From NCBI GenBank assembly GCA_022826565.1, contig JAJDUP010000054.1:6636-70635 (forward strand): a DNA stretch of 64,000 bases. Reading direction: 5' to 3'. The first letter of the stretch is position 1. Each line of letters starts with the position of its first letter. Positions 33,845 through 63,499 of this stretch are shown piece after piece. The notes below the pieces were generated by a model, which was given only the letters and a program-made list of their open reading frames with translations, had not been told where the DNA came from and searched no databases. This DNA comes from Gemmatimonadota bacterium. Its GTDB lineage: Bacteria > Gemmatimonadota > Gemmatimonadetes > Longimicrobiales > Gaopeijiaceae. The translations under genes and the position numbers were made by a program.

Positions 33845-33941
33845 GCGCGACGGGGCCCACATGCGCCCGATGTAACTGGCGAAATCCCGGGGGCGGAACG
33901 AGATTTACAGGTCTATCCCGCACCCCACATCAGGCCGCTTC

Positions 33942-43641: not shown

Positions 43642-43652
43642 CGCCCCGGCGC

Positions 43653-44690
43653 TCACGAGCCGTCTCCCGAATCGGGGCTCTCCACCCTCACAACCCCTCC
43701 GCCGACACTGCACCGGGCGCCGACAACGCCGCACACCACCGTCATCACCTCCTCGAGCGACTTCGATTCGAACCACATGGTCAGGGTACGGTCGAGGAGC
43801 GCCGGGTCGTCCACCACCACATCGGCGCCGTAGCGCGCTTCGACCTCTTGCATCGCGACACTCAGGGGTGTGTCGTGAAAGATCAGGAAGTCGTCCAGCC
43901 AGACGGCGACGGTCTCGATCGGAGGCGCGGCCACGACATCCTGCGGCTGGCCCCGCAGCAGCCTCGTCGCCTGCCCCGCCCCAACGTGCACCTCATGATC
44001 CGGCCCGGCGAGTGCGACGCGTCCCTCCACGACCGCGACGGAGAGATCTTCCTCGCCGGCGGCCAGGTGGAAGCGCGTCCCGAGCACCTCGGCCGTCCCG
44101 GCGTCGGTCGTGATGCGGAACGGCCGGGCCGGGTCGCCTGCAACGGCGAAGAAGGCTTCGCCGCGGAAGGTCACCTCGCGCGCCGCTCCCTCCGGGATTT
44201 CCGTACGCCAGGAGGCAGTGAACCAGCTGTCGGGCCCGAGGCGGATCACGCTTCCGTCGGCCAGGCGCACGATCTCGGTCTCGTCGGAATCGGTCGAGGC
44301 GAACTGCTGGATCGAGGGGGCGGCACTGTTGCCTCTCAGCTGAACGACCACCTGCCACACTCCCAGGAACACCACCACCACCGCCGCAGCCGCCAGGGTG
44401 TCGCTCCAGCGAACCCGCCGGCGCCTGGGCCGCAATCTCCATCCGAGACGCGCAACGCGGCGCTGCCCCGACCGCGCTGCCCGGGCCTCCGCGCGCCAGA
44501 TTACGTCTTCCGCGCTCGGCGCCTCACCGGGGTCCACCCGGCGATCCGCCACATGCCCCACTTCGACCAGGCGCCGCAGCTCGGACAGCTGGCGCTCGCG
44601 CTCCGGTGAGTCCTCCAGCCAGGCGGTTACCACCGCGTCCTCTTCCCTGCTCGTCTGCCTGCGCAGATGCCGCAACAGCAATTCGTCCAT
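43653..44690 (-). CDS. FecR-family anti-sigma factor / transmembrane sensor
   Basis: 345 aa. N-terminal anti-sigma helix region, one TM (TLAAAAVVVVFLGVWQVVV), FecR domain (GSVIRLGPDSWF...FRGEAFFAVA...PFRITTDAGTAEVLGTRFHL). Confidence 0.85.
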   Translation of the reverse strand: MDELLLRHLRRQTSREEDAVVTAWLEDSPERERQLSELRRLVEVGHVADRRVDPGEAPSAEDVIWRAEARAARSGQRRVARLGWRLRPRRRRVRWSDTLAAAAVVVVFLGVWQVVVQLRGNSAAPSIQQFASTDSDETEIVRLADGSVIRLGPDSWFTASWRTEIPEGAAREVTFRGEAFFAVAGDPARPFRITTDAGTAEVLGTRFHLAAGEEDLSVAVVEGRVALAGPDHEVHVGAGQATRLLRGQPQDVVAAPPIETVAVWLDDFLIFHDTPLSVAMQEVEARYGADVVVDDPALLDRTLTMWFESKSLEEVMTVVCGVVGARCSVGGGVVRVESPDSGDGS

Positions 44691-45347
44691 CTAGTCCTCC
44701 TTCACTGCCTGCCGCACGGCTCGCAGCGCGGCGCTCATCTGGTTTGCGACGGTGGGCACCGAGATTCCCATCACAGCGGCCGCTTCGGCGTGCGTGAGAC
44801 CCCGCTGGAAGACCAGCTCGAAGACCTCGCGGCGCCGCTCGGGGAGCGAGGCCACGGCGGCTTCGAAGGCGTCGGCCAGGATCCTTGCGTCCAGCACTTC
44901 GGCGGGGGTCGCGGGATGCGGCACGTCCGCGGTCTCCTGCCGCTCCATCCACCGCCGCCTCACCCCCGACCGCCGCTTCTCGTCGATCACGAGGTGCCTG
45001 ACGATCCGGTACAGGTAGGCGCGGGCCGACCCGCGCGGGCGCCATGAACGCCGGCGCTCCCATACCTGGATGAACGCCTCCTGCACGACATCGCGGGCGA
45101 TCTCCACGTCCTGCAGTTGCCGCGCGGCGTAGCGCACGAGTTCGGGCCAGCACAGGTCCATCAGTTGGCCGAGCGCCGTCGACGATCCGCCCTTGATCGA
45201 GAGCATCAGGGGCTCGACCTGGTGGGCCAGGTCCGTCCCCGGATTGTCGTCGGCGTCGCGCATGAGGTGGAGGCTTCGCATTCGCCCGGTCTGTGCGTTC
45301 AGGGTTGGATCGGAGTCCCGCGACCGATCGTCTCGGTGCTTCTGCAT
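44691..45347 (-). CDS. ECF (group IV) RNA polymerase sigma factor
   Basis: 218 aa. Region 2 (LVRYAARQLQDVEIARDVVQEAFIQVWERR, ARAYLYRIVRHLVIDEKRR) and region 4 HTH (LPERRREVFELVFQRGLTHAEAAAVMGISVPTVANQM). Its stop abuts the FecR start. Confidence 0.9.
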   Translation of the reverse strand: MQKHRDDRSRDSDPTLNAQTGRMRSLHLMRDADDNPGTDLAHQVEPLMLSIKGGSSTALGQLMDLCWPELVRYAARQLQDVEIARDVVQEAFIQVWERRRSWRPRGSARAYLYRIVRHLVIDEKRRSGVRRRWMERQETADVPHPATPAEVLDARILADAFEAAVASLPERRREVFELVFQRGLTHAEAAAVMGISVPTVANQMSAALRAVRQAVKED

Positions 45348-45459
45348 GACAAGCGCGCGAGCTGCCTGTTTCTACTATGGCCCCCCCGGCGCGGGTCCGA
45401 TACGATGTCTGCAAACCGCCACCGAGCTGGAGGTCACTCCCGGACCCGGAGATCACCGC

Positions 45460-47142
45460 ATGACCGCCGACTGCCGCACCACGACGACCGCCGCCCTGAT
45501 CGCCGCCGCGCTCCTCGCCGCCTGCACCGACGCCCCTCCCCCACCGGACCCCACCCCCTTCGACGTCCTCATCACCGACGCCCGCGTGGTCGACGGCACC
45601 GGCGCCCCATCCACCGGCGCCGACATCGGCCTCCGCGGCGACCGCATCGCCGCCGTCGGCGACCTCTCCGGCCGCCCGGCCACGCGCACCATCGACGCCG
45701 CCGGCCGCGTCGTGGCCCCCGGGTTCGTCGACATGATGGGCCAGGCCAGCCTCGTCCTCATCACCGACCCCCCGAGCGCCGAGAGCAAGCTGCGCCAGGG
45801 CATCACCACCTACCTCTCCGGCGAGGGCGGCTCGGCCGCGCCCCAGAGCGAGGCCACGCTCGCCAATCCGCCCGTGATCGACGGCGACACCCTGCGCTGG
45901 CGCCGCTACTCCGAGTACTTCGCGATCATGGAGCGCTACGGCATCCCCATCAACGTGGTCCACGACGTCGGCCTGACCCAGGTGCGGCGCGTGGTTCTCG
46001 GCAACGAGGACGTCGCCCCCACGCCCGAGCAACTCGAAGAAATGAAGGCACTTGTCAGGGAAGGGATGGAGGACGGCGCGGTCGGCGTGTCCACCTCCCT
46101 GATCTATCCGCCCGCGATCTACGCATCCACGGACGAGCTGGTCGCACTCAGCGCGGTGGCCGGCGAGTACGGCGGCATCTACTTCACGCACATGAGGAAC
46201 GAGAGCTACGCGGTCCTCGAAGCCATCCGCGAGGCCCTCACCATCGGCGAAGGGGCTGGCGTCCCCGTCCACATCTACCACCTGAAAGCGGCCGGCCAGC
46301 GCAACTGGCCCCTCATGGACGAGGCCCTCGCGCTCATCGACTCCGCCCGCACCGCCGGCATGGACGTCACGGCCGATATCTACCCCTACATCCGCAACGG
46401 CATCGGTCTGGGCTCGTTCCTGCACCCGCGCCACTACGCGCGCGGCACCGGCGCCTTCCTCGCCACCCTCGGCGACCCCGATCTGCGGGCCCGGCTGCGC
46501 GAAGAGGTCGAGACCGACTCCGAGTGGGAGAACTGGTACCAGCACGTGGGCATGGACTGGAACAACGTGCTGATCGTCTCGGCGCCGGGCACCGTCGACC
46601 CCGGGGTCGTGAACCGCTCCGTCGCCGAAGCGGCGGAGGTACTCGGGACCGACCCCTGGAACGCCTTCTTCGACCTCGTGCAGGCGGGCGGCGTCAGCGT
46701 CAACCCGCTCAGCATGAACGAGGAGCAGAAGTGGGCCGCCCTGCGCGCGCCGTACGTCATGATCGACACCGACGCCTCCCCCGTGAACCCGGCCTCCGTG
46801 TCGAGCACCCATCCCCGCGCCTTCGGTGCCTTCCCGCGCGTGATCGCCAAGTACGTGCGGGAGGACGGTGTGATCTCGCTGGAAGAGGCCGTGCGCCGGA
46901 TGACATCGCTCGCCGCAGAGCGTTTGGGGATGGAGGACCGCGGGGTCGTCGCGGCGGGGATGGCGGCTGATCTGGTGGTATTCGACCCGGCGCGCCTGCG
47001 GGATCGCGCCGACTTCGGCGCGGACGCGACCCTGCAATCGGAAGGCGTGGATTATCTCTTCGTCAACGGCACGCTCGTCATCGACGACGGGGAACTGACC
47101 AACGCCAGGCCGGGGAGGCTGCTGCGGCGCAGCCGGAACTGA
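45460..47142 (+). CDS. N-acyl-D-amino-acid deacylase (D-aminoacylase) family amidohydrolase, lipoprotein
   Basis: The start is taken at ATG 45460 (MTADCRTTTTAALIAAALLAAC lipobox); upstream track codons are antisense to the sigma gene. FDVLITDARVVDGTGAPSTGADIGLRGDRIAAVGDL...IDAAGRVVAPGFVDMMGQ is typical of the family. Confidence 0.8.
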   Translation: MTADCRTTTTAALIAAALLAACTDAPPPPDPTPFDVLITDARVVDGTGAPSTGADIGLRGDRIAAVGDLSGRPATRTIDAAGRVVAPGFVDMMGQASLVLITDPPSAESKLRQGITTYLSGEGGSAAPQSEATLANPPVIDGDTLRWRRYSEYFAIMERYGIPINVVHDVGLTQVRRVVLGNEDVAPTPEQLEEMKALVREGMEDGAVGVSTSLIYPPAIYASTDELVALSAVAGEYGGIYFTHMRNESYAVLEAIREALTIGEGAGVPVHIYHLKAAGQRNWPLMDEALALIDSARTAGMDVTADIYPYIRNGIGLGSFLHPRHYARGTGAFLATLGDPDLRARLREEVETDSEWENWYQHVGMDWNNVLIVSAPGTVDPGVVNRSVAEAAEVLGTDPWNAFFDLVQAGGVSVNPLSMNEEQKWAALRAPYVMIDTDASPVNPASVSSTHPRAFGAFPRVIAKYVREDGVISLEEAVRRMTSLAAERLGMEDRGVVAAGMAADLVVFDPARLRDRADFGADATLQSEGVDYLFVNGTLVIDDGELTNARPGRLLRRSRN

Positions 47143-47204: not shown

Positions 47205-48950
47205 TTACGACGCCCCCACCGGATCCACCCGCACCGTCACGATATCCGTATCGTGGTACTTCTGGTGCCGCACCGACGTCGCGATGTGGCGCAGCAGGCG
47301 CAGCGAGAAGTCATGCTCCACGGGCACCTCCGTCACGCTGCCCCCGACGAAGGCCATGCGGTCTTCGATGTTGCCCTCACCCGCGGCGGCGAGGAATTCG
47401 AGCTCGGCCCCGCCCCCTTCGGCCCGGGCCGTCACCCGCAGGCGGCGCGTGCCCAGGGCATCGTCCTCCGCAATCTCGTCGAGGAGGACCAGCAGCGTCT
47501 CCTCGGCGGCGAGGCTCATGCGGTGGACCAGGTCGTCACCCAGACCCGAGCGCGCGCCGAACTCCTCCAGGAATGTCTGGATCTTCGGTTGCGCCCCGAC
47601 GTTCAGCTTGGTCTCCATGCGGCGGCGCCTGGGCCCGGTCAGCTCCATGAACGCCGACAGCAGGATCGCGATAAGCCCGCCCGAAGTCATTCCGTTCTCC
47701 AGCAGCTGCCCGGCCCAGCCGAAGTACTCCGACGGGATCTGGCCGCTCTGAAACCCCGCTCCGATCCAGAACGAGACGCCGATGATCGTGGCCTTGCGGT
47801 AGTCGATGCCGTCCTGGGTAACCATCTCCAGCCCCAGCACGAACAGTATCGCGATCAGCACGATGATGTAGGCGCCGACCACCGGATTGGGTATGGCGAG
47901 CAGCACCGCCGTCGCCTTGGGGAAGAAGGCGAGCGCGATGAAGGTCAGCCCGATGCAGACGCCCACCCGCCGGGCGGCGATCCCGGTGATCTCGACGATC
48001 GAGACGCTGTTCGAGTAGGTCGTGTTCGGGACGGTGGCGAGGAGGCCGGAGAGGAGGTTGCCCACCCCGTCGGCCGCCACCGCGCCCTGGACAGCACGGA
48101 AGTCGGTGGCCCGCCGCTTGCGCCATGACACCCGCTGGATCGCCATCCCGTCGCCGATCGTCTCGATGGCGCCGACGAGCGTGACGAAGATGAACGCGGG
48201 CAGCATCGCCCAGAACGCGGGACTCAGGCTCAGATCGAAGCCCGGCCAGCCGCCCGCCGGGACGCCGAACCACTGTGCGTCGCCCACGATGCCCATGTCG
48301 TAGATGCCGTACGCGGCCGCCACCAGACAGCCCCCGACGGCTCCGATGACCGACCCCCACAGCCGCAGGGCGCCCCTCGCCCGCAGCACGATCACGATGG
48401 TGATCACGATGGTCGCCAGGGCCGTGAGCGGAGCTGCCGCGGGGGCCGCACCCTCCGGCGCCTGGAAGAGGAGGTCGAAGCCGATGGGCATGACCGTGAC
48501 CGCGATCAGCATGATCACGGTGCCGGCCACCGTCGGCGTGATGATGCGCCTCAGCAGCGACAGGTGCGACGAGATCAGGAACTGGCAGAGCGACGAGGCC
48601 ACGATAAGGGTGGCCAGCAGCGCCGGGCCGCCCCGTTCGAGCGCCGCCACCGACACCGCGATGAAGACCCCCGACGTGCCCATGAGCAGGATGTACCCGG
48701 CCCCGATCCTGCCCGCGATCGGCCGCGCCTGGATCAGGGTCGAGATCCCGCAGACGATCAGGACGGCGAAGGCCGCCCATGTGAGGTAGCTCTCGCTGCC
48801 GCCGCCCGCGCGCACCACGATCGCCACCGTGATGACGATGCCCGCGATGTTCAGCAGTACGTACTGGAATGCGAGCCCGAACGATACGGGGTAGCTGGGC
48901 GACTCGTCGGCCTGGAAGCGGAGGCCCAGGCGCGTGTCGGGAGGGGTCAT
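47205..48950 (-). CDS. NCS2 (xanthine/uracil/vitamin C, SLC23-type) family permease with extra ~140-aa C-terminal cytoplasmic domain
   Basis: 581 aa. Multiple TM helices; family motifs AADGVGNLLSGLLATVPNTTYSNSVSIVEITGIAARR and AIPNPVVGAYIIVLIAILFVLG. Its ATG overlaps the aminotransferase stop (ATGA). Confidence 0.8.
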   Translation of the reverse strand: MTPPDTRLGLRFQADESPSYPVSFGLAFQYVLLNIAGIVITVAIVVRAGGGSESYLTWAAFAVLIVCGISTLIQARPIAGRIGAGYILLMGTSGVFIAVSVAALERGGPALLATLIVASSLCQFLISSHLSLLRRIITPTVAGTVIMLIAVTVMPIGFDLLFQAPEGAAPAAAPLTALATIVITIVIVLRARGALRLWGSVIGAVGGCLVAAAYGIYDMGIVGDAQWFGVPAGGWPGFDLSLSPAFWAMLPAFIFVTLVGAIETIGDGMAIQRVSWRKRRATDFRAVQGAVAADGVGNLLSGLLATVPNTTYSNSVSIVEITGIAARRVGVCIGLTFIALAFFPKATAVLLAIPNPVVGAYIIVLIAILFVLGLEMVTQDGIDYRKATIIGVSFWIGAGFQSGQIPSEYFGWAGQLLENGMTSGGLIAILLSAFMELTGPRRRRMETKLNVGAQPKIQTFLEEFGARSGLGDDLVHRMSLAAEETLLVLLDEIAEDDALGTRRLRVTARAEGGGAELEFLAAAGEGNIEDRMAFVGGSVTEVPVEHDFSLRLLRHIATSVRHQKYHDTDIVTVRVDPVGAS

Positions 48951-50317
48951 GGGTGGCGTCCGTACGGGGATCGGGATGGGCCGGCTGTGCTGCGGGCTCG
49001 CGGCGACGCGCTCTCGATGGCGGTCCCGTACCGCTCGAGGAACACCTCGAAAGCGGCGACCAGCCTGTCGCAGTCCTGGTCGTCGTGGGCAAGTGAGACC
49101 GACATGAAGCCGCGGCGCGCGATCCAGAACCCCGCGAGCAGCATCTCGAGGTGGAACAGATCGCGGGCGGCCTGCGGGGTCGCGGCGGTGTCGCCGTGGC
49201 AGCGCACGGGCGCCCGCTGAAAGTGCACCGTCATGATCGAACCGCGGCCCGTCACCAGGGCGGGCACATGCAGCCGCGCGGCGACGCCGTTCAGTGCATC
49301 GCGCAGGGCATCACCGCGGTCGTTCAACCGGCGGACGGTGGCGGGTGTCAGCACGTCTCGCAGTCCCGCGAGGCCAGCGGCCATCGTGAGCGCGTTGTTG
49401 TTGTGCGTGCCGGCATGGCTGAAATGATCCGGACGGCGCGGATCGAACCGGTCCATCAGCTCCGCGCGGCCGCCGAACGCGCCGAACGAGGCGCCGCCGC
49501 CGAGGTACTTGCCGAAGGTGGTCAGATCCGCATGGATGCCCAGCACTTCCTGGAGGCCGCCCGGCGCGAGGCGCGAGGTCTGCACTTCGTCGAAGATCAA
49601 CAGCGCGCCGCTGCGCTGCGTCGCGTCCCTGAGCGCGCCGAGGAACGCCCGCGTCCCGGGGATGCAACCGCCGCCCCCGAGCATGGGCTCGACCAGCACG
49701 CACGCGAGTCGGTCCGGCTGTTCCTCGATCATCGAGCGCGCCGCCTCCGCATCGTTGTATTGCCCGACGACCCACGGGAACGGAACATTGAGACGCCGAT
49801 CCGGCCCCGTGAATGTCAGTGGACCGCCATGGTACCCGCCGTCGAACACAAGCACCCCGCCGCGCCCGGTGACAGCGCGTGCGAGGCTGACCGCCATGAG
49901 GTTGGCCTCCGTCCCGGAGTTCGTGAACCGGACACGCTCGACGGAGGGAAAGCGCCCGCAGATCAGCTCCGCGAACCGCTGCTGGTTCGGCGTGGGCCCG
50001 CCGAGCGTGAGCCCGTCCTTCGCCGCCCCGGCGATCGCCGCCTGGATGGTCGGGTTGGAGTGCCCGTACAGGCCCGCCGTATGGTCATTCAGGAAATCGA
50101 CGTACTCGTGCCCGTCGAGATCGTACAGCCGGGCGCCCACGCCCCGGACGATCGTCACCGGGAAGGGCGCGTAATGGTTGACCGTGCGGGTGTCCGCGCC
50201 GGGAAGGAATCTCGTGGAACGCTCGAAGCTCGCTTCGCTCGCCGGATTGGCCGCCGCGTACCGGGTGGCCGCATCGGTGGCGAGCTCCTGCAGCGTTCGC
50301 GTCTGGACCGTTGTCAT
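48947..50317 (-). CDS. class-III (glutamate-1-semialdehyde aminomutase-like) PLP aminotransferase
   Basis: 456 aa. YDLDGHEYVDFLNDHTAGLYGHSNP, FTNSGTEANLMAV, LIFDEVQTSRLAPGG, PLP-lysine motif DLTTFGKYLGGG. Confidence 0.85.
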   Translation of the reverse strand: MTTVQTRTLQELATDAATRYAAANPASEASFERSTRFLPGADTRTVNHYAPFPVTIVRGVGARLYDLDGHEYVDFLNDHTAGLYGHSNPTIQAAIAGAAKDGLTLGGPTPNQQRFAELICGRFPSVERVRFTNSGTEANLMAVSLARAVTGRGGVLVFDGGYHGGPLTFTGPDRRLNVPFPWVVGQYNDAEAARSMIEEQPDRLACVLVEPMLGGGGCIPGTRAFLGALRDATQRSGALLIFDEVQTSRLAPGGLQEVLGIHADLTTFGKYLGGGASFGAFGGRAELMDRFDPRRPDHFSHAGTHNNNALTMAAGLAGLRDVLTPATVRRLNDRGDALRDALNGVAARLHVPALVTGRGSIMTVHFQRAPVRCHGDTAATPQAARDLFHLEMLLAGFWIARRGFMSVSLAHDDQDCDRLVAAFEVFLERYGTAIESASPRARSTAGPSRSPYGRHP

Positions 50318-50824: not shown

Positions 50825-53800
50825 TCACCGTAGTGGTTCGAACCAGTAGCGTTTGCGCTGGAACGGATAGCCGGGCACAGAGATCCGGCGTCGCGCTTCT
50901 CCCGCGAAAAGCCCGGCGAAGGAAACCGGGAGGCCTTCGGTGTACGCCTCCGCCACCCACTCTTCGAATGTGTCGGCTGCATGCTCCGTGCCGTTCGGCC
51001 AATCGTTGAGAGGTATGGGGCCTGACCCCGATCCGGGACTGATCTCGAGAACCAGATCGACATCGAGCGCCGCAAGCGCCTGGGCGGTGGGTCGGCGTGG
51101 GGCCTCCAACGGACGCAACTGCCCTTGCCAGTAGGCTGCATCGAGAATCTCCGTCGGGCTGCGCACTCGTCCAGTCCCCGGATTCACGATGGACAGCGAG
51201 GGTAACGAAAACTCGATCTCGGGGAACGGGGCTTCCACGCTATCCACACTTCGTGCGGCGGCCAGGCGAAGTCCGTCTTCCAGGCCAAACACCCCTGCGC
51301 TCCACGCCGCCGACAACGCGCTGATCCCGCGTCCCGACACCACCTGGGGCCGGATACCGACACTCGCCCAGAGCGCGGTAAGGGCGCACTCCAGCGCGAA
51401 GGCTGCCGGTTCCCGCCAGGCCGGATCGTCTTCGTCCGCGCTCGCACCGCTCTGGTCGAGCGTCACATCCAGCAGGGGAACGCCGCCAAGTTCGTCGCGC
51501 AGAACGCGGTCGCAGCGGTCAAGAACGGCCCGTACCACGGGCTCGGTCCGGTACAGATGCTTCGCCGTCTTCGCACGCGCGTTTCCTTCGCCCGCGTAGG
51601 AGAAGGCCACCTTCGGCGTCGCAGCGACCGCCCGTGCCGTCGCTGACGTGGCCGCCCTGTCCCCCGTTGAGATTGCATGCAACTGCTCGCGCAGCGAGTC
51701 GGCGTCACGAAATGCGAGAGCCGCCCGGTGCGTGAAGTGGTCGCGTCCTACGCTCGCCGTCCACGCCATGTCCGACAACAGGGAGTCCACAGAATCTCGC
51801 TCGGCCTGGAGATCGTGGCCGTGGGTGTCGAGCCAGGCGAGATACCGTCCCGCCAACTCGCGCAGCGCCTGGTCCGACTTGCCTGAAATCGGCAGGACGC
51901 GCGCGGTGCGTGGGTCGAAGGGGCCTGATGGAGGGGACAGTTTCGTCAGCGGCCCCGGCATTGCAATGTCGATGGTTCGTGGGGACCCGGCGGGTTGGCC
52001 CGAGTTGCCACTCGTTTGGGAGGGGTCATGGATCGGTCCGTAGCCCTCCACGACGACATGCGCGTTCGTGCCTGATATCCCGAATGCGCTCACGCCGGCA
52101 AGTGGCGTCCGATCCGCATGCCCTGGCCAGCGCGTTGCCTCCGACGTCACCTGCACCGGGAGCGCGTTCCAATCCACATGCTCGTTCGGGTTCCTGAAAT
52201 GGAGGTGCTTCGGGATCACGCCATGCTTCATTGACAGCATGATCTTGATCAGCCCCGCGATCCCCGCAGCCGACTCGAGGTGGCCGATGTTGGTCTTTAC
52301 GGAGCCGATCAGGAGTGGACGGTCCGCCTCGCGTCCCTCGCCGTAGACGGCGGCGGCCGCCTGCACCTCGATTGGATCCCCCAACGTGGATCCCCCTCCA
52401 TGGGCTTCCAGATAATCCACCTCTCCAGGCGCGACGCCCGCTCGATCGAGCGCGTCCCTGATCACGCGCTGCTGCGCTCGCCCGTTGGGGACCGTCGGTC
52501 CGGCGGTCGCCCCGTTCTGGTTCACCGCCGTGCCGCGAACCACTCCCCAGATCCGGTCACCGTCGGCCTCCGCTTCATGAAGCCGCTTGAGGACGATCAT
52601 CCCGCAACCCTCGCTCCGCACGGCCCCATCCGCCGAGGTGTCGAAGGTCTTGCACCGGCCCTCCGACGACAGCATCCCCAACTCGACCATTTCCCTGGTC
52701 AACCCGAGCGAAAAGACGGCATTCACGCCTCCGACCAGCGCCAGGTCCACTTCACCCTGGCGCAGGGCCGCTACGGCGTGGTGCACCGCGACCAGCGACG
52801 CCGCACAGTTGAGGACCACCGGCATCGTGGGCCCCATGATCCCCAGCTTGAAGGCGACCCCGCCGAGCGCCATGGAACTCGCGGTGCCGAGATAGTTGAG
52901 GTCCTGGCCGCCGGCCAGCATCATGAGGTCGCGGTACTCGCTGGTCGCGACGCCCGCGTAGACGCCCGTGCTGCTGCCCCTCAGCCTCTCCGGATCGATT
53001 CCCGCGTCCTCCAGCGCCCGCCAACTCGTTTCCAGGAGAAGCCGTTGCTGCGGATCCATCAGGCGCGTGCCGATCGGCGTCATGCCGAAGAAACGCGCGT
53101 CGAAACGGTCGATCCCTTCAACGAACCCACCCTGGCCCCAGGCGTTGGCCCCGGTCTCGGGGTCGCCCGCGATCCCGGCCCAGGCACCGCCATCCTGCCG
53201 CCCGTGCGTCACGGCATCGCGGCCGGCTTCGAGTTGTCTCCAGAACGTCTGCAGGTCCGGGGCGCCGGGGAATCGACAGGCCATGCCGACGATTGCGATC
53301 CCATCGTCCTTCCGAGTCAGCGCCGCTGGCGCGGTCGGCTCGGCCGTTGGCTCGGGGGCGGGCGTCGGCTCGGGGATGGGTGCCGAATCAGCGACGGATT
53401 CCGCGTCGCCGAGCGCGTCCACCAGATGACCGGCGAGATCGGTGATGGTCGGGTAGTCGAATACCAGCGTATTCGGCGCCGCGTACGTTTCGGAGAAAGC
53501 CCGGTTGAGACGGTTTCGCAGTTCGACCGCCATCAGGGAGTCCATCCCCAGGTCGAAGAATCCAACCGCGGGCGCCGGCGCCGAGGGTAGTCTCAGGACC
53601 GCCTGGACCTCTCCTTGCAAGAAGGACACAAGCCGACTCTCGCGCTCTGCCGGCAGTGTCGCAGCGAGCAATGCAAGCAGGTCGTCCGACGAGGACGCGC
53701 CGTCGTCATCCGCATCTACGATGAGCAGCTCCTCCAGCAGGGGTGGACGGTCTTCGAGGGACTCACCGAGAACCGGCCAGTCCACCGCCGCCACCACGGC

Positions 53801-56800: not shown

Positions 56801-59800
56801 CAGCGGATCCGCATCGCCACGAAGCACCTCGGGCAGTGCGCCGGCACAGCGCCGAAACAGCCCGATCTCGTTCGTCGCGTGCGGCAGGCGCGCCGCCACG
56901 TCGGTCAGAAACACTTCGGAATCGCTCGGCATTTGATCGGGCAAGGGCTCGTCGGCTCCGATCGTTACGATGAAACCCTCGTCCTGCGCCTTCAGCACGC
57001 CCGAACGGGCCAGTACCTCGAGCACGCGACGCAGCAGGTGCCCATGCTCGGGTAGAATCTCCAGGCGCTCGCGCAACTCTTCCGGATCGACCGTGGCTCC
57101 TGCCTTGCGTTCCCACCCCAGTGTTTCCAGAGCCGACAGCGCGTAGCACCACGACACCCGCTCCATCTCCTCCTGCAGGGTGGTCTCGTCTTCGACCCGC
57201 ACCCCCTCGGCGGCCAGATACCGCGAGAATGGCAGCGAGCGAGCCGCTGCGGCCGACGGACTCGGCAGGAAATCCGCCGCCGGCATGCCCGGGGGCAGGG
57301 CGCGGTCGCGCCACACCACCTCGTAGAGCAGTTCCTCCACCCCCTCCACCGCGGGGAGCAGCGCACTCCGTGTCGCCCGCTTCACCGTGTACCCATCGAG
57401 CGTGCCGATCGGGGATCCGCCCATGTCGCAGAGGGTGATGTCCGCGCTCAGCACCTCCGGCAGCTCGGCGCTCGCACGTTCCGGCGTCTCCCGCAGGCGG
57501 ACATGGCAGAGCAGCCGGTCCGGCAGCTGTTGCGGCACCGACAGCCGCTCCCACCCGAAGGGCAGATAGGTGACGTCCTCGTCGGATCCGAACGCCTCCC
57601 GGGCCGCACCCATCACCTGAAAGCAACCGTCCAGCAGGAGTGGATGAAACGCCAACCCGCCGCCGTCGGTGGATGCCGGCAGGGAAACCTCGCCCAGTGC
57701 TTCGCCCGGCGCGGCCCAAAGCGCCGCCAATGTGCGGAATGAGGGGCCGAGATCGATCCCGACGTCAGCCTTGGCACGGTAATAGGCCGCGAGATCCACC
57801 GGCGCCAGATCGGCCCTGAGCTGTGCCAGGTCCAGCGGCGCGGCGACTTCCGACAGATCCGCACCGACCCCTGTCGGGACTCGGCCTTCCGCGTGCAGCG
57901 TCCATTCTTCGTCGCGGGCATCCCTGCTCAGTATCCGGACTCGGCGTGACCCGTCCTCTTCGGCGCGGTTCAGCAGCAGCTGAAGCCGACGACCTTCTTC
58001 CTCGCCCGGGTCCGCTTCGTCCCTCTCCGCGAAGACAAGGGCGCTCTGCATCTGGAAGTCCTCGACGACGGCCGGGCCGGGGTTCTCGGCGGTACCGGCC
58101 GATGCCGCCATGGCGCCATAGAGCGCCCCGGGCACAACCACGCGATCGAACACGCGGTGGTCGTCGAGCCATGCAGGGTCGGAGGGGAACAGCTCGGTGT
58201 CGAAGCTGATCTCGCCGCTGGCGGACTCGTGCCGGCTGCCGAGGAGCGGGTGATCGGCACTCGAGCGCCTCCGCCGGGGTGCGTCGATCCAGTGGCGGTC
58301 GCGGCGGAAGGGATAGCCCGGCACCGAGATCCTGCGCCGTGACTCGCCGGCAAAGAGCCCGTCGAACCGTACCGGCAGCCCCGCCTCGTACGCTCCAGCG
58401 ACCGCCGCGAAGAAGGCGTCTTCCGCCTCCGTCGCCGAGACATTGCGTCCGGGCCGTTTGAGGCTCGACAGCGTGACGGGCGGCGCGGGACTCCCGGGCG
58501 AATCCGGCCAGGCGAGCGTGGTCATGGGCCCGAGCACCGAGTGCGGACCGATCTCCACGACCGCGCCCACCCCCAGTTCCGCCAAGGTCCCGACGCAGGC
58601 GCGGAACGCCACCGGCGCGCGCATCTGCCGCCGCCAGTATGCCGCATCCAGCGCCTCGTCCGGACCGACCAGCCGCCCGCTGAGATTGCTGACGAATGGA
58701 AGCGACGGTTTCGCGAAGGCCAGCCGCGAAAGGGCTTCTTCCAGATCGTCCAGCGCCGGCTCGATCATGGCGCTGTGGTAGGCGGGACTCTTCCGCAGCC
58801 GCGCTACCCGAGTCCCGGCCGCCTCCAGGCGCTCGAGGATCGAGCCGACCTCGGCCGCCGGACCGCTGATGACCTGGTGCGCGCCATTGTCGGCGGCGAT
58901 ACAGAGGCCGATGCCGCGTGAGGCCGCATTGTGCTCGTCCAGCGCCTCCGCGACGAGGGCGGCCGGCGCGAACACCGCCGCCATCGCGCCTTCGCCGGGC
59001 AGGGCGCCGACCAGCTCGCCTCGCACCGCGGCCAGGCGCAAGCCGTCCTCCAGGCCGAACACGCCCGCGGTGTGCGCCGCCGCGATCTCGCCCAGGCTGT
59101 GACCCAGCACCACCTGCGGCCGGATGCCGACGCTCGACCAGAGCGCCGCAAGTGCGCATTCGAGCGCGTAGATCGCCGGCTGCTTCCACCGCGGATCGTC
59201 CAGGTCGCCCGCGGCAGCGGAACGGCCGAACATCACGTCGAGCAGCGAAGCATCACGTTCTTCCCTGAGCACTTCGTCGCACCGGTCGAGGACCGCCCGC
59301 ACCACCGCCTCACTTGCGTAGAGGCCCGCGCCCATGCCGGGCCACTGGCTGGCCTGCCCCCCGTAGGCGAACGCCACGGTCGCTGCCTTGCGAGATTCCG
59401 GCGTCTCATCCCCATCGGCGATCTTTCGCAAAGCTTCGCACAACGACTCGGCGTCGCGGAACACCACGCCGGTCCGGTGGTCGAAGTGGGTCCGTCCCAC
59501 ACTTGCCGTCCACGCCATGTCGGCGAGAGGTGGGTCACCGGCACCGTTGTCGGCAGAAGCCTTCCCGGCCCCCTCCCCGACCCAATCGAGATACCGCCGC
59601 GCCGACTCGCGCAGCGCTTCTTCGGACCTGCCGGAAAGGGGCAGGATGCGTGTCACACGGGCGGAGAGGTCTGCCGACCGCGGTGCGGTCAGTGGCCCGC
59701 CATCCGCGCTCTTCTCCGACGGCGAAACGGCGACCGGCAACGCCGGGCCGACGGGCCAACGGCGGCCGGCCGTGTGCCCATCCCCGAGAGTGCCACCGGC

Positions 59801-61111
59801 CGCCTCGTGGCCTTCCAGCAACACGTGAGCATTCGTCCCCGACCACCCGAACCCACTCACCCCCGCCCGCGGTGGTCGGCCGGCACGGAGCGGCCACTTC
59901 ATCCGGTCATCCGTCACCCGCAGGGGAATCCGATCCCAGTCTATCTGCGGGCTCGGGTTGTGGAAGTGCAGGTGCTTCGGGATCGTCCCCCGCCCGATCG
60001 AAAGGACGGCCTTGATCACGCCTGCCGCGCCCGCCGCGGCCTCCAGGTGGCCGATGTTCGTTTTCACCGACCCGATCAGGACGGGGTGGTCCGGGTCGCG
60101 ACCCCTGCCGTACGCCGCCGCCGTGGCGCGCGCCTCGATGGGGTCCCCGACTTCCGTTCCCGTCCCGTGCGCCTCCACGTAGTCCACATCGGAGGGCCGG
60201 AGCCCGGCCCGCAGAAGCGCGTCCTCGATGCACCGTTCCTGCGCCTCCTGGCTCGGCACCGTCAGGCCCGGGGTCGCGCCGTCCTGGTTCACAGCGGTGC
60301 TGCGGATCACGGCCCAGATACGGTCGCCGTCCGCCTCGGCCTCGCTCAGCCGCTTCAGGACCAGGATGCCGCACCCCTCCCCTCGCACGTAGCCGTTCGC
60401 ACCTGCGTCGAAGGTGGCGCACCGTCCATCCGGCGACAGCATCCCGGCGTTCGCGCGCATCTCGAAGAGTTGGGCCGACAGGATCACATGAACGCCTCCC
60501 GCCAGCGCCATGTCCGCCTCTCGCCGCTGCAGCCCGGACACCGCCTGGTGGATCGCCACCAGCGATGAGGAGCATGCGGTGTCGAGGGCCATCGCCGGCC
60601 CGTTCAGCCCCAGGGCGAAGGCAACCCGTCCGATGGCGGTGTTGAAGGACGTGCCCGTTACCGAGTAGAGGCTTGCGGCCGGCTCCGTCGGCCGTCCCGC
60701 GTCGAGGACCAGCGCCCGGTAGTCGTAGTTGCTGATGCCCGCGTACACACCCGTGCGGCTGCCCTTCAGCCGATCGGGATCGATCCCGGCATCCTCGAGC
60801 GCCTGCCAGCTCGTCTCGAGCATCATGCGCTGCTGTGGATCCAGCCGCTGGGCCTCGACCGGGGAGATGCGGAAAAACGAGGCGTCGAATTCGTCAAGCC
60901 GGTCGAGGAAGCCGGCGTACCGGCAGCCCCTGGCGACCTTCTCGTCGGAAAAGAGCTGTCCCGCGCGCCCGACTCCGGATCCCGGAACCCCCTCGGTGAC
61001 GGCGTTTACGCCGGCTTCGAGCAGATCCCAGAACTCGGGGACACCGGGTGCCCCGGGGAAACGGCAGGCCATGCCGACAATCGCGATGGGCTCCGCGTCA
61101 TGGCGGGACAT
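50825..61111 (-). CDS. type I polyketide synthase, two modules: KS-AT-DH-cMT-ER-KR-ACP-KS-AT(degraded)
   Basis: AAGGAGGTGA 5 nt before ATG 61111 (the track uses GTG 61129). Approximate domain spans on the + strand follow. KS1 59810-61093 (DTACSSS, EAHGTGT, NIGHLE). AT1 58415-59377 (GHSLGE). DH 57380-58258 (HRVFDRVVVP, LPFGW, LDGCFQ). cMT 56210-56812 (VLEVGAGIGS). ER 54500-55462 (LIHAGAGGVG). KR 53900-54460 (YLVTGGLGGIG). ACP 53420-53647 (FFDLGMDSL). KS2 52040-53305 (NCAASLVA, EAHGGGS, NIGHLE). AT remnant 50828-51610. Confidence 0.95.
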   Translation of the reverse strand: MSRHDAEPIAIVGMACRFPGAPGVPEFWDLLEAGVNAVTEGVPGSGVGRAGQLFSDEKVARGCRYAGFLDRLDEFDASFFRISPVEAQRLDPQQRMMLETSWQALEDAGIDPDRLKGSRTGVYAGISNYDYRALVLDAGRPTEPAASLYSVTGTSFNTAIGRVAFALGLNGPAMALDTACSSSLVAIHQAVSGLQRREADMALAGGVHVILSAQLFEMRANAGMLSPDGRCATFDAGANGYVRGEGCGILVLKRLSEAEADGDRIWAVIRSTAVNQDGATPGLTVPSQEAQERCIEDALLRAGLRPSDVDYVEAHGTGTEVGDPIEARATAAAYGRGRDPDHPVLIGSVKTNIGHLEAAAGAAGVIKAVLSIGRGTIPKHLHFHNPSPQIDWDRIPLRVTDDRMKWPLRAGRPPRAGVSGFGWSGTNAHVLLEGHEAAGGTLGDGHTAGRRWPVGPALPVAVSPSEKSADGGPLTAPRSADLSARVTRILPLSGRSEEALRESARRYLDWVGEGAGKASADNGAGDPPLADMAWTASVGRTHFDHRTGVVFRDAESLCEALRKIADGDETPESRKAATVAFAYGGQASQWPGMGAGLYASEAVVRAVLDRCDEVLREERDASLLDVMFGRSAAAGDLDDPRWKQPAIYALECALAALWSSVGIRPQVVLGHSLGEIAAAHTAGVFGLEDGLRLAAVRGELVGALPGEGAMAAVFAPAALVAEALDEHNAASRGIGLCIAADNGAHQVISGPAAEVGSILERLEAAGTRVARLRKSPAYHSAMIEPALDDLEEALSRLAFAKPSLPFVSNLSGRLVGPDEALDAAYWRRQMRAPVAFRACVGTLAELGVGAVVEIGPHSVLGPMTTLAWPDSPGSPAPPVTLSSLKRPGRNVSATEAEDAFFAAVAGAYEAGLPVRFDGLFAGESRRRISVPGYPFRRDRHWIDAPRRRRSSADHPLLGSRHESASGEISFDTELFPSDPAWLDDHRVFDRVVVPGALYGAMAASAGTAENPGPAVVEDFQMQSALVFAERDEADPGEEEGRRLQLLLNRAEEDGSRRVRILSRDARDEEWTLHAEGRVPTGVGADLSEVAAPLDLAQLRADLAPVDLAAYYRAKADVGIDLGPSFRTLAALWAAPGEALGEVSLPASTDGGGLAFHPLLLDGCFQVMGAAREAFGSDEDVTYLPFGWERLSVPQQLPDRLLCHVRLRETPERASAELPEVLSADITLCDMGGSPIGTLDGYTVKRATRSALLPAVEGVEELLYEVVWRDRALPPGMPAADFLPSPSAAAARSLPFSRYLAAEGVRVEDETTLQEEMERVSWCYALSALETLGWERKAGATVDPEELRERLEILPEHGHLLRRVLEVLARSGVLKAQDEGFIVTIGADEPLPDQMPSDSEVFLTDVAARLPHATNEIGLFRRCAGALPEVLRGDADPLSLLFGDAEPTAADLYRRAAVWRAANRMLGEVFRTLVDELPESRRIRVLEVGAGIGSATEYILPELPAGRFDYMYTDISAGFFAEAEARFSTGDASIDYRVLDIEKDPIEQGFEAHGYDLVVAANVLHATRHLDETLAHCRALLAPSGLLVALENQRGRGWMDLIFGQLDGWWRFADRYRSNHALAGPDVWRRALADTGFAESDVLGLDLQEVAGLPDRGVIVAQGPAEIALPEGVWVVAADRGGIAAGLAAELAAQNQRVVLAGDDPEVAAAVAESEAGVVVASIEMERRESWRSLIEGLPSDVPFAGAVHLVAQDGHGAEATTEDIAADAKRATASALALVQGIADADAVPEKGLWFVTRGAQVFERERTGQLAGAPLWGFGKVVAREAPQLQPRMLDLDPEAVEPHAVLAHDLLFPDSENHIAHRRGRRQAARLVRSGAGVERLALPEGADWVLAPGEGGAIEALRVQPLAPRALEPKEVRAAVDACGLNFLDVFRAMGLVEDEGMLGEEFCGRIVEVGSDVTTVAVGDRVAGFAFGTFGPEVVTRHELVALAPPNASATALATIPSVFVTCVLSYELAGLKVGDRVLIHAGAGGVGLSAIQLAQAAGAEVFATASAGKRDYLRSIGVEHVLDSRSTAFGQDILDATEGAGVDVVLNSLTGEGFIEASLACLAGGGRFVELARRDILTEDEMAALRPDVAYSILDLYTLKEQDPAGPGAALTDVLARVEAGELSPLRHTIWPMAETSAAMGYMRAARHIGKIVLTTPPIAGGRLRRDGTYLVTGGLGGIGLALAEWLAERGAGTVVLNGRRAPDAAAEEAIEALRAGGFRIEVAIADVTDTGAVDSMLERIDAALPPLAGVIHSVGVLSDAALGNQSWQSFETVLWPKMLGAWHLHRATLERDLDIFCLFSSVAGVLGNPGQANHAAANAFLDQLAAHRRALGLPAQAIAWGAWSGLGEAEEQRERIAGRREASGTGWFTPEQGFLAFERLLREDATGAVVAAVDWPVLGESLEDRPPLLEELLIVDADDDGASSSDDLLALLAATLPAERESRLVSFLQGEVQAVLRLPSAPAPAVGFFDLGMDSLMAVELRNRLNRAFSETYAAPNTLVFDYPTITDLAGHLVDALGDAESVADSAPIPEPTPAPEPTAEPTAPAALTRKDDGIAIVGMACRFPGAPDLQTFWRQLEAGRDAVTHGRQDGGAWAGIAGDPETGANAWGQGGFVEGIDRFDARFFGMTPIGTRLMDPQQRLLLETSWRALEDAGIDPERLRGSSTGVYAGVATSEYRDLMMLAGGQDLNYLGTASSMALGGVAFKLGIMGPTMPVVLNCAASLVAVHHAVAALRQGEVDLALVGGVNAVFSLGLTREMVELGMLSSEGRCKTFDTSADGAVRSEGCGMIVLKRLHEAEADGDRIWGVVRGTAVNQNGATAGPTVPNGRAQQRVIRDALDRAGVAPGEVDYLEAHGGGSTLGDPIEVQAAAAVYGEGREADRPLLIGSVKTNIGHLESAAGIAGLIKIMLSMKHGVIPKHLHFRNPNEHVDWNALPVQVTSEATRWPGHADRTPLAGVSAFGISGTNAHVVVEGYGPIHDPSQTSGNSGQPAGSPRTIDIAMPGPLTKLSPPSGPFDPRTARVLPISGKSDQALRELAGRYLAWLDTHGHDLQAERDSVDSLLSDMAWTASVGRDHFTHRAALAFRDADSLREQLHAISTGDRAATSATARAVAATPKVAFSYAGEGNARAKTAKHLYRTEPVVRAVLDRCDRVLRDELGGVPLLDVTLDQSGASADEDDPAWREPAAFALECALTALWASVGIRPQVVSGRGISALSAAWSAGVFGLEDGLRLAAARSVDSVEAPFPEIEFSLPSLSIVNPGTGRVRSPTEILDAAYWQGQLRPLEAPRRPTAQALAALDVDLVLEISPGSGSGPIPLNDWPNGTEHAADTFEEWVAEAYTEGLPVSFAGLFAGEARRRISVPGYPFQRKRYWFEPLR

Positions 61112-61135: not shown

Positions 61136-63499
61136 TCACCACGAAAGCGCCTTCGAGAATTTCACCGAGAATGCCCGCCCCGAGGACAACGGCGTACGTG
61201 GAATCATGTTCTGGTCCCGCTCCGTGTGAAGGCCCTCGTTGTATACAAGCCAGAGATCTGTGCCTTCGCTGAAGTGATAACGCATGCGTGTGTTGATGCT
61301 GGTGAGGTCGTCCACGCCGTTGTACTGGGTGTAAGTGCTCAGAGAAAGATGGGTGTCCAGCGCCAACTCCACCTTCAGTTGCGCCAAATGCGTCGTGGTT
61401 GCCAGGCCGCGCTCGGGGAATTCGATCCGGTTGATGGAGTATGCCATCCCGAGCTCCAGATGCCGAGAGACATTCCACACGGGACCGGCCGATGCACCGA
61501 TCCGGCTTCCGTCGTAGAAGGTGCCGGCTGAAGTCGTGAACCTGCCGCGCAAATCATCGCTGCGGGACAGCGTGAAATTGGCCGCAACCTCGTGGAACCA
61601 GTATTCACCCGCCGCGACTTGCACATCGGCAATGGGGAACGGGTCGCGCACGCTCTCGAACTGCGACCTGACACCCACATCGAGCCTGGCTCCGCCCTTG
61701 AACTGGACCTCTGCTTTGGGATAGATCTCCCTCGATTCCGGCGTCCCGTCCGAATTGCGGGTGAACTGCCTGGCGGTCAGCCGCACGCCCTGCCTGCGAA
61801 ACATCGCGCTGGCGTCCATATACTCGCCGTAAGCGAATTCCAGGCCGCCAAGGGTGAAGCCCGTGCGCCGCTGGAATCCGAGGCCGGGCCTGTAGTCGGA
61901 TCCCACCCGGACGGCATCGGCAGAGTAGGTGAATCCCTCATCGCGCCGCCGCTCCCAGCGGGCCCGCATCAGTCCGGTCTCGAAGCCGGTGGCGTCCGTC
62001 GTCGCCTCGTCGAAACTCTGCGCCCATTGCAGCAGGGCATACTCGTCGCCGACCACCCGCACCGATGCGTCCAGTCCATACGCGACGTTGTCCCGGCCGT
62101 GCGAACCCAATCGGCTGGTAACCATCGCGCCGACGGTGGAGTAAGGGTTCAGCACCTGCTGGCGCAGCCGCAGCACGCCCATGTTCTCGGAAGAGAGGCT
62201 GCCATGCGCCCCGGTCTGCATGTTCAGGAGTCCGTAGTCGGTGCCCCCGATCCGTCCGACCGCGCGCACGCCGCCGTAGATCTTCACGATCTCGCCCTCG
62301 TGAAGCCCGATCTGCCGGCTGTGGAATAGCCGGTTGAAGGGCCCGCCGGTGTTGAAGTCGAAGGTAGCCGAGCGCTCCTGGAAGAACTGGCGCTTCTCTG
62401 GAGTGAACAGCGGAAAGCGCTCGATGTTGATCTGGGCGCTGTCAGCCTCCACCTGTGCGAAATCGGTGTTGGCGGTGAGGTTCAGCGCCAGGCGGGAGGT
62501 GGGAGAATACTTGATGTCGAGTCCCACTTCACGGGTGGCGTCCTGCTCGGCATCCCACACCGAATGCGGGCCTCGGTGGCCATCCGCGAGTTTCGGGGTC
62601 CGGCGCACGCCTGCCAGCACGTAGGGCATCGTGTAGACGGGGGTCTGCTGTCGGACGTTCCGGAGGACGATGCGCTGAGCCTGAGAGGGCTTCACGAACG
62701 CCACCCCTCCCCAACCTGGATCAATGTCCGGAAAGAGGTGCCGCTCGTCCTTGCGCGCGATCATCCGGTAGATGATCAGGCCCATCGTCACTTCTTCGTC
62801 CAGCACCTGGAATCCCAGTGTGGAGAAGGGAATCCGAAACTCGGCGAACCAGCCTTCGTCGGTACGGCTGGTTGCCACATCCCAATACGAGTTCCAGTCG
62901 GAATTCATGGGCAGTCCGCCGCCGACGGTAATCTGGGCATCGTTGTAGACCGTGCGATCCACGCGCGTCCCTGCCGGATTCGTCAGGAACATGACTGCAG
63001 TTTCATAGTCGTTGTAGCTGTCGACGATGACAGCAAGGGCATCGTCGCCGCTGTACCGATCACGGTAGAGAGTGTTGGCGCGGATCCCCTCCGGATCGGA
63101 ATCGAACAAGCGGCCAGACACGTAGAGGAAGCGGTCATCGTGGACGATACGAACTTCGCTGGGCTCCGTGAAGGGGCCATGGTACGTGGGGGCGAACACT
63201 ATCATCGGGACGGGCTCCACGGCCTCCCATGCCGCCTCGTCCACGATCCCGTCCAACCTGATGGGCCCCGAGATTCGAGGAATCGTCATGGGGATGGTCC
63301 GGGAGTCACCCGCCGGCCGGTCGGTTTCGGCCTGCGGAACGTGCCCCCACAGGGGTGACGGCAAGAGGAAAGCCGTCTTGAGGGCGCATGACACGAGAAT
63401 TGGGAGAAAAACCAGGCGGGGCCCTCTCGCACGGGAGGTCGTGGAGGTGGAGCTGGCGTCGCCCGTGCCCGTCCTGGTACAAGAACTCATGGCAAACAT
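61136..63499 (-). CDS. DUF5916 / CBM9-like domain protein, paralogue of 33942..36227
   Basis: 787 aa. ISGPIRLDGIVDEAAWEAVEPVPMIVFAPTYHGPFTEPSEVRIVHDDRFLYVSGRLFDS...DALAVIVDSYNDYETAVMFLTNPAGTRVD. The stop is 24 nt upstream of the PKS start on the same strand. Confidence 0.75.
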   Translation of the reverse strand: MFAMSSCTRTGTGDASSTSTTSRARGPRLVFLPILVSCALKTAFLLPSPLWGHVPQAETDRPAGDSRTIPMTIPRISGPIRLDGIVDEAAWEAVEPVPMIVFAPTYHGPFTEPSEVRIVHDDRFLYVSGRLFDSDPEGIRANTLYRDRYSGDDALAVIVDSYNDYETAVMFLTNPAGTRVDRTVYNDAQITVGGGLPMNSDWNSYWDVATSRTDEGWFAEFRIPFSTLGFQVLDEEVTMGLIIYRMIARKDERHLFPDIDPGWGGVAFVKPSQAQRIVLRNVRQQTPVYTMPYVLAGVRRTPKLADGHRGPHSVWDAEQDATREVGLDIKYSPTSRLALNLTANTDFAQVEADSAQINIERFPLFTPEKRQFFQERSATFDFNTGGPFNRLFHSRQIGLHEGEIVKIYGGVRAVGRIGGTDYGLLNMQTGAHGSLSSENMGVLRLRQQVLNPYSTVGAMVTSRLGSHGRDNVAYGLDASVRVVGDEYALLQWAQSFDEATTDATGFETGLMRARWERRRDEGFTYSADAVRVGSDYRPGLGFQRRTGFTLGGLEFAYGEYMDASAMFRRQGVRLTARQFTRNSDGTPESREIYPKAEVQFKGGARLDVGVRSQFESVRDPFPIADVQVAAGEYWFHEVAANFTLSRSDDLRGRFTTSAGTFYDGSRIGASAGPVWNVSRHLELGMAYSINRIEFPERGLATTTHLAQLKVELALDTHLSLSTYTQYNGVDDLTSINTRMRYHFSEGTDLWLVYNEGLHTERDQNMIPRTPLSSGRAFSVKFSKALSW

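Follow-up and report, generated by a model that had tools for sequence, protein, structure and literature searches.

A terminal ketosynthase followed by a gutted acyltransferase is a conserved end of SupA-type polyketide synthases, with a discrete acyl carrier protein as its probable partner

The Sup ('sponge symbiont ubiquitous') polyketide synthases (PKSs), SupA among them, reportedly go back to Fieseler et al. 2007 and Hochmuth et al. 2010, and SupA is said to have been drawn with a second ketosynthase (KS) and an acyltransferase (AT)-like region. Sup is described as a small, single-module PKS resembling a fatty acid synthase (FAS), with a C-methyltransferase and no thioesterase, which is carried by symbionts of high-microbial-abundance sponges across many phyla and still has no proven product after almost twenty years. 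The family dominates the KS amplicon libraries of sponges (PMC4245539, PMC3908369, PMC9864124), with supA making up >99% of the KS amplicons in one study (PMC4245539), and a 2023 survey found a sponge-specific KS clade, 24.7% of it from Gemmatimonadetes, that has no member in MIBiG (PMC10308959). Among the metagenome-assembled genomes (MAGs) of Palauibacterales, 21 of 52 are sponge-derived (PMC10469786). Here we describe a PKS gene in a 64-kb stretch of DNA from a Gemmatimonadota bacterium (contig JAJDUP010000054.1 of assembly GCA_022826565.1, positions 6,636 to 70,635; hereafter the window), the product of which ends in a second KS (KS2) and a remnant of an AT (AT°). Its architecture, the taxonomic spread of its hosts and its permease point to Sup, and the locus is apparently a member of this known but uncharacterised family, with Sup itself compared by description only. 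We find that the KS2-AT° tail is the normal, selected C-terminal end of this SupA-type single-module family, and that it probably acts as a functional unit in which AT° is a non-catalytic scaffold and a discrete acyl carrier protein (ACP) is the partner.

The PKS of the window is encoded by a single open reading frame (ORF) that is uninterrupted over 10.3 kb. Its Pfam matches comprise two KSs, one full AT, one partial AT, a dehydratase (DH), a C-methyltransferase (cMT), an enoylreductase (ER), a ketoreductase (KR) and one PP-binding domain, giving the order KS1-AT1-DH-cMT-ER-KR-ACP-KS2-AT°, while no thioesterase or other release domain was found by Pfam in the 3434-aa protein. This domain order is repeated in 66 relatives, and the single fully reducing module with a C-methyltransferase, like the lack of a thioesterase, matches the description of Sup. 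The order KS-AT-DH-(MT)-ER-KR-ACP of module 1 is also common to animal FAS and mycocerosic acid synthase (MAS), and the MAS and Pks13 models score strongly on the window PKS, yet under their cut-offs. Unlike the window PKS, however, animal FAS and MAS end in a thioesterase or are released by a partner acyltransferase, and none of them has a second KS with a gutted AT.

The initial annotation of the window had described the terminal KS as seemingly intact in its catalytic residues and the region behind it as a colinear copy of AT1 that has decayed, and its coordinates and motifs were all reproduced when the translation and motif positions were recomputed. A global alignment of KS1-AT1 with the C-terminal 814 aa of the protein is colinear throughout, with VAFSYAGEG at 51584-51610 in the KS2-side copy and 51% identity between AT° and AT1. 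The nucleophile elbow GHSLG of AT1 is replaced in AT° by GRGIS (residues 3266-3270, 51320-51334). A single gap of 88 aa, equivalent to residues 704-791 of AT1 and with its junction at 51250/51251, takes out the small subdomain together with the PAYHS motif, the bearer of the catalytic His, and a further gap of 21 aa lies ahead of the post-AT linker. The GQxSQ loop is lost (GQASQ of AT1 reads GEGNA in AT°), and EIGPHS has become EISPGS. The linker motif RRRISVPGYPF at 50861-50893, on the other hand, is identical to the AT1 copy at 58307-58339, and the TGA stop codon (50825-50827) follows 6 aa beyond ...YPFQRKRYW, directly after the post-AT linker as had been proposed. No intact Ser-His dyad was found by this alignment. 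Compared with FabD-like ATs, the nucleophile Ser, the catalytic His and the ferredoxin-like small subdomain are all gone, and with both Ser and His lost AT° is predicted to be incapable of working as an acyltransferase.

To place this tail in a wider context, one genome per species was scanned, which yielded 80 related loci in MAGs from more than 10 phyla; these phyla include Gemmatimonadota, Nitrospirota, Latescibacterota, Acidobacteriota, Chloroflexota, Proteobacteria and others, and MAGs of Palauibacter/Gemmatimonadota, Nitrospirales, Latescibacterota, Chloroflexota and Porisulfidus are among the relatives. The SB066x_bin, APA_bin, RHO_bin and COS_bin series are presumably sponge microbiome bins; their record titles do not contain the word 'sponge'. 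In 66 other loci, complete chromosomes among them, the PKS is a single intact ORF of 3300-3575 aa with the same domain order and the same end, stopping 3-20 aa after PGYPFQRRRHW. An alignment of the resulting 67 full-length proteins revealed the small-subdomain deletion in all 67, with a distance from elbow to PGYPF of 154-200 aa in AT° versus 262-277 aa in AT1. Its recurrence in 66 other genomes places the pattern far outside what chance would produce. The elbow Ser of AT° is lost in 60 of these proteins; the 7 that keep it, members from Nitrospirales and Porisulfidus, are without the His region. A search with the remnant only returned more than 180 proteins that have the same internal deletion and a mostly GxGxG elbow and end after PGYPFQRRRHW. 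In AT1, the specificity motif (58772-58786) is PAYHS in the window and in about 23 of 67 relatives, and KAFHS- or HAFHS-like in the others.

These data bear on the possibility that the tail is a recent, private decay on its way to a pseudogene, or that an assembly truncation hides an ACP or a thioesterase, in which case KS2 would be a relic. Such a reading can draw on the loss of the Ser-His dyad, on the presence of frameshifted supA copies in some assemblies, and on the window lineage itself, in which AT° is the most reduced version, the shortest and the fastest-evolving (dN 0.26 against the nearest relatives, where the KS domains have 0.02-0.07). However, the ORF is intact over 10.3 kb, the deletion is universal in the family, and the ratio of nonsynonymous to synonymous substitutions (dN/dS) stays under 1 in AT° and lies far under it in KS2. 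Furthermore, the same end point in 66 other, independent genomes excludes an assembly truncation, and Logan contig L083, an independent assembly, has the same junction of PKS end, ACP and aminotransferase as the window; SRR16351679 carries this junction too. We therefore rejected truncation and private decay, and a functionless relic is effectively excluded. The term 'decay' in the initial annotation also had to be corrected, since the deletion is common to 67/67 proteins and selection preserves this state. The emphasis that had been placed on an odd terminus is likewise reduced, as the KS2-AT° end is a widespread trait of a known PKS family, which makes it less surprising; taken alone, the window holds an ordinary, regular family member.

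Short first matches that looked like stand-alone AT° proteins were rejected as such, being the last pieces of frameshift-split supA genes in long-read assemblies; on their contigs the split gene keeps the KS-AT-DH-cMT-ER-KR-ACP-KS-AT° order and has a small ACP gene nearby. In two loci from long-read metagenome assemblies, L001:1157-11365 and L002:1099-11461, supA is broken into three ORFs by frameshifts, which could be sequencing errors or mark real pseudogenes. Frameshifts have been reported in 15.4% of supA amplicons (PMC4245539).

Selection on the individual domains was estimated by the Nei-Gojobori method for ten gene pairs. The dN/dS values were 0.02-0.13 for KS1, 0.06-0.21 for KS2, 0.13-0.34 for AT1 and 0.17-0.41 for AT°, with one low-count pair at 0.73 for the latter. 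AT° is thus under relaxed but clear constraint, that is, under purifying selection. An AlphaFold2 model of the linker domain, AT° and post-AT linker, built on an alignment of 118 sequences, reached a predicted local distance difference test score (pLDDT) of 87 and a predicted TM-score (pTM) of 0.89, and its best Foldseek matches were isolated PKS ATs and, within KS-AT didomains, the portion made up of linker and AT (TMq 0.61-0.68). The model thus depicts AT° as a folded shell of the AT large subdomain without a catalytic centre. Together, the constraint and the confidently predicted fold agree with the earlier suggestion that AT° has been retained as a scaffold. The features of the locus are given in Table 1.

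Table 1. Coordinates of the PKS gene, its terminal domains and adjacent genes in the window
Feature	Position	Strand	Basis and remarks
supA-like PKS gene, 3434 aa	50825..61129	-	Stop codon 50825-50827; translation, Pfam; ORFs of the same length and end in 66 other loci
KS1, residues 13-440 (DTACSSS / EAHGTGT / NIGHLE)	59810..61093	-	Pfam, motifs, family alignment
AT1, residues 585-945, intact (GHSLG 676-680, PAYHS 782-786, post-AT linker RRRISVPGYPF)	58295..59377	-	Pfam, motifs, family alignment
cis ACP of module 1 (LGMDS, Ser2531)	53405..53632	-	Pfam, motifs, family alignment
KS2, residues 2607-3035	52025..53311	-	Pfam, motifs, family conservation, dN/dS
KS-to-AT linker domain of KS2, residues 3036-3173	51611..52024	-	KAsynt_C_assoc, CurL-like_PKS_C and RhiE-like_linker, two stretches each; well folded in the model
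AT° remnant, residues 3174-3385, core of the large subdomain only	50975..51610	-	Alignment, deletion in 67/67, dN/dS, model
Post-AT linker and C-terminus (…FAGLFAGEARRRISVPGYPFQRKRYWFEPLR*)	50828..50974	-	Translation, alignment; family ends 3-20 aa past the linker motif
Discrete ACP, 76 aa	50548..50778	+	PP-binding, E = 5e-9; convergent with the PKS gene, 46 bp from its stop
NCS2/xanthine-uracil-type permease, 581 aa, SupE-like	47205..48950	-	Homologues with 44-58% identity beside the PKS in about 52/83 loci
Class-III aminotransferase, beta-transaminase type	48947..50317	-	Between ACP and permease; stop overlaps the permease start (ATGA)

A KS without a working cis AT is also the hallmark of modules in trans-AT PKSs, in which the extender unit is supplied by an AT in trans and the linker and post-AT linker are kept, as they are around AT°; the best PDB sequence match of KS2 is indeed a trans-AT bimodule (7zma). 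The window PKS differs from these systems in that AT° keeps the whole large subdomain (about 210 aa, 51-57% identical to AT1 across the family), and in that the enzyme has an intact cis AT1 and no free-standing AT gene occurs among the recurrent neighbours of the family loci, which sets the locus apart from trans-AT systems. Remnants that match the window AT° contiguously over the deletion junction were also found in the proteins P0324 (196-445), P0332 (725-1009) and P0295 (1407-1672), where they sit inside other multimodular PKSs, one of them preceding DH-cMT-KR-ACP. To judge by these matches, a gutted AT of this kind is not confined to the SupA tail.

The origin of the tail was then considered. 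The initial annotation had proposed an internal KS-AT duplication followed by decay of the AT; the duplication is plausible, and the decay is neither recent nor private to the window but predates the family. KS1 and KS2 are 55-58% identical, and AT1 and AT° 51-57%. Among the 67 proteins, the two AT copies fall into separate orthologous groups, as do the two KS copies, and in these groups the nearest relative is always the same copy in another genome. The excess identity between the two copies of one protein is small (+1.7% for the AT and +0.4% for the KS) and the nearest neighbours are always orthologues, which led us to reject concerted evolution of AT1 and AT° as well as a recent gene conversion between them. 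The separate orthologous groups, together with the lack of own-copy likeness, indicate that the deletion is older than the radiation of the family. A duplication of the KS-AT unit or of the whole module would plausibly account for KS2-AT°, but it is unproven because KS and AT domains from outside the family resemble KS2 and AT° almost as closely as KS1 and AT1 do: they are 48-58% identical to either copy, versus about 57% between the copies, in a comparison in which some of the proteins taken as outgroups proved to be family fragments. P0270, a library protein of 4424 aa without genomic context, is bimodular; its module 1 is like SupA, and its second module has a KS (CSSSL, HGTGT), an intact AT (GHSVG, GFHS) with peptides characteristic of the family, and then DH, cMT and further sequence. 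Its sequence resembles the untruncated two-module form from which KS2-AT° could derive.

We next analyzed the catalytic residues of KS2. In the window, Cys2775 (52805-52807) lies in NCAASLVA (residues 2774-2781, 52787-52810), His2910 (52400-52402) in EAHGGGS (residues 2908-2914, 52388-52408) and His2950 (52280-52282) in NIGHLE (residues 2947-2952, 52274-52291), so that the Cys-His-His set is complete, and the Lys of SVKTNIGH is present as well. The claim of an intact KS2 thus stands at the level of residues. Across the family the Cys and the second His are present in 67/67 proteins, the first His in 63/67 (Asn in the other 4), and the Lys in all. By these residues, Cys-His-His plus the Lys of xVKxNIGH, KS2 has the profile expected of a condensing KS. 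Loss of the His of HGTGT, by which a non-elongating KS (KS0) is recognised, is seen neither in the window KS2 (EAHGGGS) nor in 63 of the 67 proteins. In L018, L026, L043 and L046 the first His is replaced by Asn (EANGVGS and similar) with the full architecture kept, and in such lineages KS2 may do no more than pass the chain on.

The candidate for a carrier acting in trans with KS2 had been placed in the small gene that converges on the PKS gene, and both the PP-binding match (Table 1) and its conservation support this proposal. In about 74 of 82 loci a homologue is encoded no more than a few kb from the PKS end; the homologues are 76 aa long, which corresponds to a start at the ATG of position 50548 in the window, and their attachment Ser in DSGxSSxD (DSGISSMD in the window) is invariant. 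Scores against the models of housekeeping ACPs of fatty-acid synthesis are weak, well under the cut-offs. The stretch that separates the PKS gene from the convergent ACP gene gave no significant hairpin of an intrinsic terminator (z = 0.29). In 59 loci (59/83 relatives) the ACP gene is followed, in the same direction, by a gene for a 305-aa alpha/beta hydrolase (Abhydrolase_6) that combines an HG oxyanion motif with an FHSLS elbow and a conserved Asp and His (for example L032:10967-11884, minus strand), which is likely to be the release enzyme of the family. In about 20 loci, mainly of Latescibacterota, Acidobacteriota and Chloroflexota, an Sfp-type phosphopantetheinyl transferase (PPTase) is encoded right beside the discrete ACP (for example L039:11307-11894, plus strand, and L002:1-589, minus strand); no PPTase was found within the 64-kb window.

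Taken together, these findings suggest a mechanism in which module 1 would assemble an acyl chain, C-methylated and fully reduced, on its cis ACP, and KS2 would receive this chain on Cys2775 and condense it with a malonyl unit held by the discrete ACP. The latter could be loaded in trans by AT1, the sole working AT in the locus, or by the cellular FabD. AT°, together with the linker domain and the post-AT linker, would provide the architectural frame and an ACP-docking cleft, as in a KS-AT didomain, and the chain would exit the synthase on the free ACP, from which it could be released by the alpha/beta hydrolase in most genomes or pass to lipid metabolism. We consider a functional tail with a scaffolding AT° and the discrete ACP as partner to be quite probable as a whole, and for its more specific part, that KS2 truly elongates, the odds are somewhat better than even.

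The principal alternative is that KS2 is a non-elongating transacylase, which would hand the completed chain over from the cis ACP to the discrete one, without condensation, in an off-loading step. A precedent is the enacyloxin PKS, in which, reportedly from the work of Masschelein et al. 2019, the C-terminal KS0 of Bamb_5919 passes the chain to the stand-alone carrier Bamb_5917 for the condensation enzyme Bamb_5915. As in the window, that terminal KS is said to have no following ACP, a discrete carrier is encoded nearby, as one is conserved beside the PKS gene here, and the chain leaves on the carrier. The enacyloxin KS0, however, reportedly lacks the catalytic His, as known KS0 domains typically do, and is not followed by an AT remnant, whereas the window KS2 keeps Cys-His-His and has AT°; the release enzymes are also said to differ, being a condensation-domain enzyme in enacyloxin and an alpha/beta hydrolase in the relatives of the window. 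The absence of any working AT, reductive domains or cis ACP after KS2 would suit a transacylase, as would the degenerate HGTGT motif, which is HGAGS or HGGGS throughout the family. By contrast, the first His in 63/67 proteins, the second His and the Lys in all, and a dN/dS of KS2 as low as that of KS1 argue for a condensing enzyme, and a plain transferase has no obvious need for an AT-shaped docking frame. We favour true condensation over transacylation because the condensing residues are under KS1-like constraint and because this position in P0270 is taken by an elongating module; a transacylase is therefore the less likely of the two, at perhaps one chance in a few, although the choice between elongation and off-loading goes beyond what sequence can decide.

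Several observations nonetheless weigh against the proposed mechanism. The HGTGT motif of KS2 is systematically HG(A/G)GS, with both Thr replaced (by Gly and Ser in the window, mostly by Ala and Ser in the relatives), and this change, like the Asn at the first His in 4/67 members whose architecture is whole, is what marks non-elongating KSs. A second module would have neither reductive domains nor an AT of its own. That AT1 could charge the discrete ACP finds no sign in the sequence, and which of the two, KS2 or the discrete ACP, passes the chain to the other is assumed. In the window the putative release enzyme is missing, the alpha/beta hydrolase having been found nowhere in its 64 kb. Finally, the literature goes no further than to propose mid-chain methyl-branched fatty acids as the product of Sup (PMC4245539, PMC3908369, PMC9864124).

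Such mid-chain branches (PMC4245539) require a pre-made acyl starter, and they would fit a reverse flow, in which the discrete ACP brings KS2 a starter acyl chain, drawn for instance from fatty-acid synthesis. By condensing this starter with malonyl on the cis ACP, KS2 would prime the synthase, and the iterative rounds would fall to KS1. With only one AT and one cis ACP, the two KSs could share them, and the discrete ACP does score against the ACP models of fatty-acid synthesis, albeit weakly and well below the cut-offs. However, the ACP gene mostly shares an operon with that for the alpha/beta hydrolase, which suits release better than priming, the position of KS2 downstream of the cis ACP is the canonical arrangement for accepting a chain from it, and the conserved gene set has no acyl-ACP ligase or loading enzyme. 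We regard the reverse flow as improbable. Viewed over the whole family, the tail becomes a concrete hand-over hypothesis: the AT-shaped scaffold is always kept, the catalytic set of KS2 is constrained, and the ACP-hydrolase operon is nearly always adjacent. Heterologous expression of these PKSs would accordingly need the small ACP to be co-expressed, plus the hydrolase and the PPTase where present.

These data also allowed us to compare the gene content around the PKS. The NCS2 permease, two genes away from the PKS in the window, is likened by description only to SupE, a permease of 557 aa (PMC3908369). Compared with its Sup-like relatives, the window is missing the alpha/beta hydrolase present in 59/83 and has a beta-transaminase gene in its place. 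This aminotransferase is, by eye, about half identical over its full length to the solved beta-transaminases 6iz9, 2yku and 4ao9 (E 1e-127 to 1e-129). It was rejected as a conserved member of the cluster, as none lies beside the PKS in the other 82 loci, among which there are two distant matches with 25-26% identity several kb away. Its membership in the PKS system is uncertain, and lineage-specific. Exchange of the hydrolase for a beta-transaminase is the only novelty specific to this locus. One might imagine that in this Gemmatimonadota lineage the hydrolase was swapped for a beta-transaminase, the gene of which is translationally coupled to that of the permease, and that a beta-keto product would thereby give rise to a methyl-branched fatty acid with a beta-amino group, to be exported from the cell. 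This scenario, which needs KS2 to elongate onto the discrete ACP, is doubtful; if true, a beta-amino product would define a new Sup subtype and would be indirect evidence that KS2 condenses to an unreduced beta-keto end. A parallel is offered by MycA of the mycosubtilin/iturin synthases, in which the domain after a KS is an aminotransferase that works on a beta-ketoacyl carrier, and the MycA aminotransferase domain (6kfm) is among the PDB matches of the window enzyme (E = 9e-38). The likeness is confined to this local peculiarity, a KS with a would-be beta-keto thioester product beside a class-III aminotransferase; unlike that of MycA, the window enzyme is stand-alone and far closer to beta-transaminases acting on free acids, and it lacks conservation across the family. 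Just as well, the aminotransferase gene may be there by coincidence and serve nucleobase or beta-amino-acid catabolism together with the permease and an amidohydrolase (Amidohydro_3) encoded at 45193-47142 on the plus strand.

The wider surroundings of the PKS are of another kind. Paralogous DUF5916/CBM9 genes are located directly upstream of the PKS gene (61136-63499, minus strand) and at 33876-36227 (plus strand), and genes for CarboxypepD_reg-type TonB-dependent receptors at 3082-5877, 37277-40015 and 40954-43776 (minus strand). An ECF sigma/FecR pair is found at 43653-45347 (minus strand), and the window also encodes several secreted peptidases (S8, M8, M14). Together, these genes form a nutrient-scavenging context that has no relation to the PKS.

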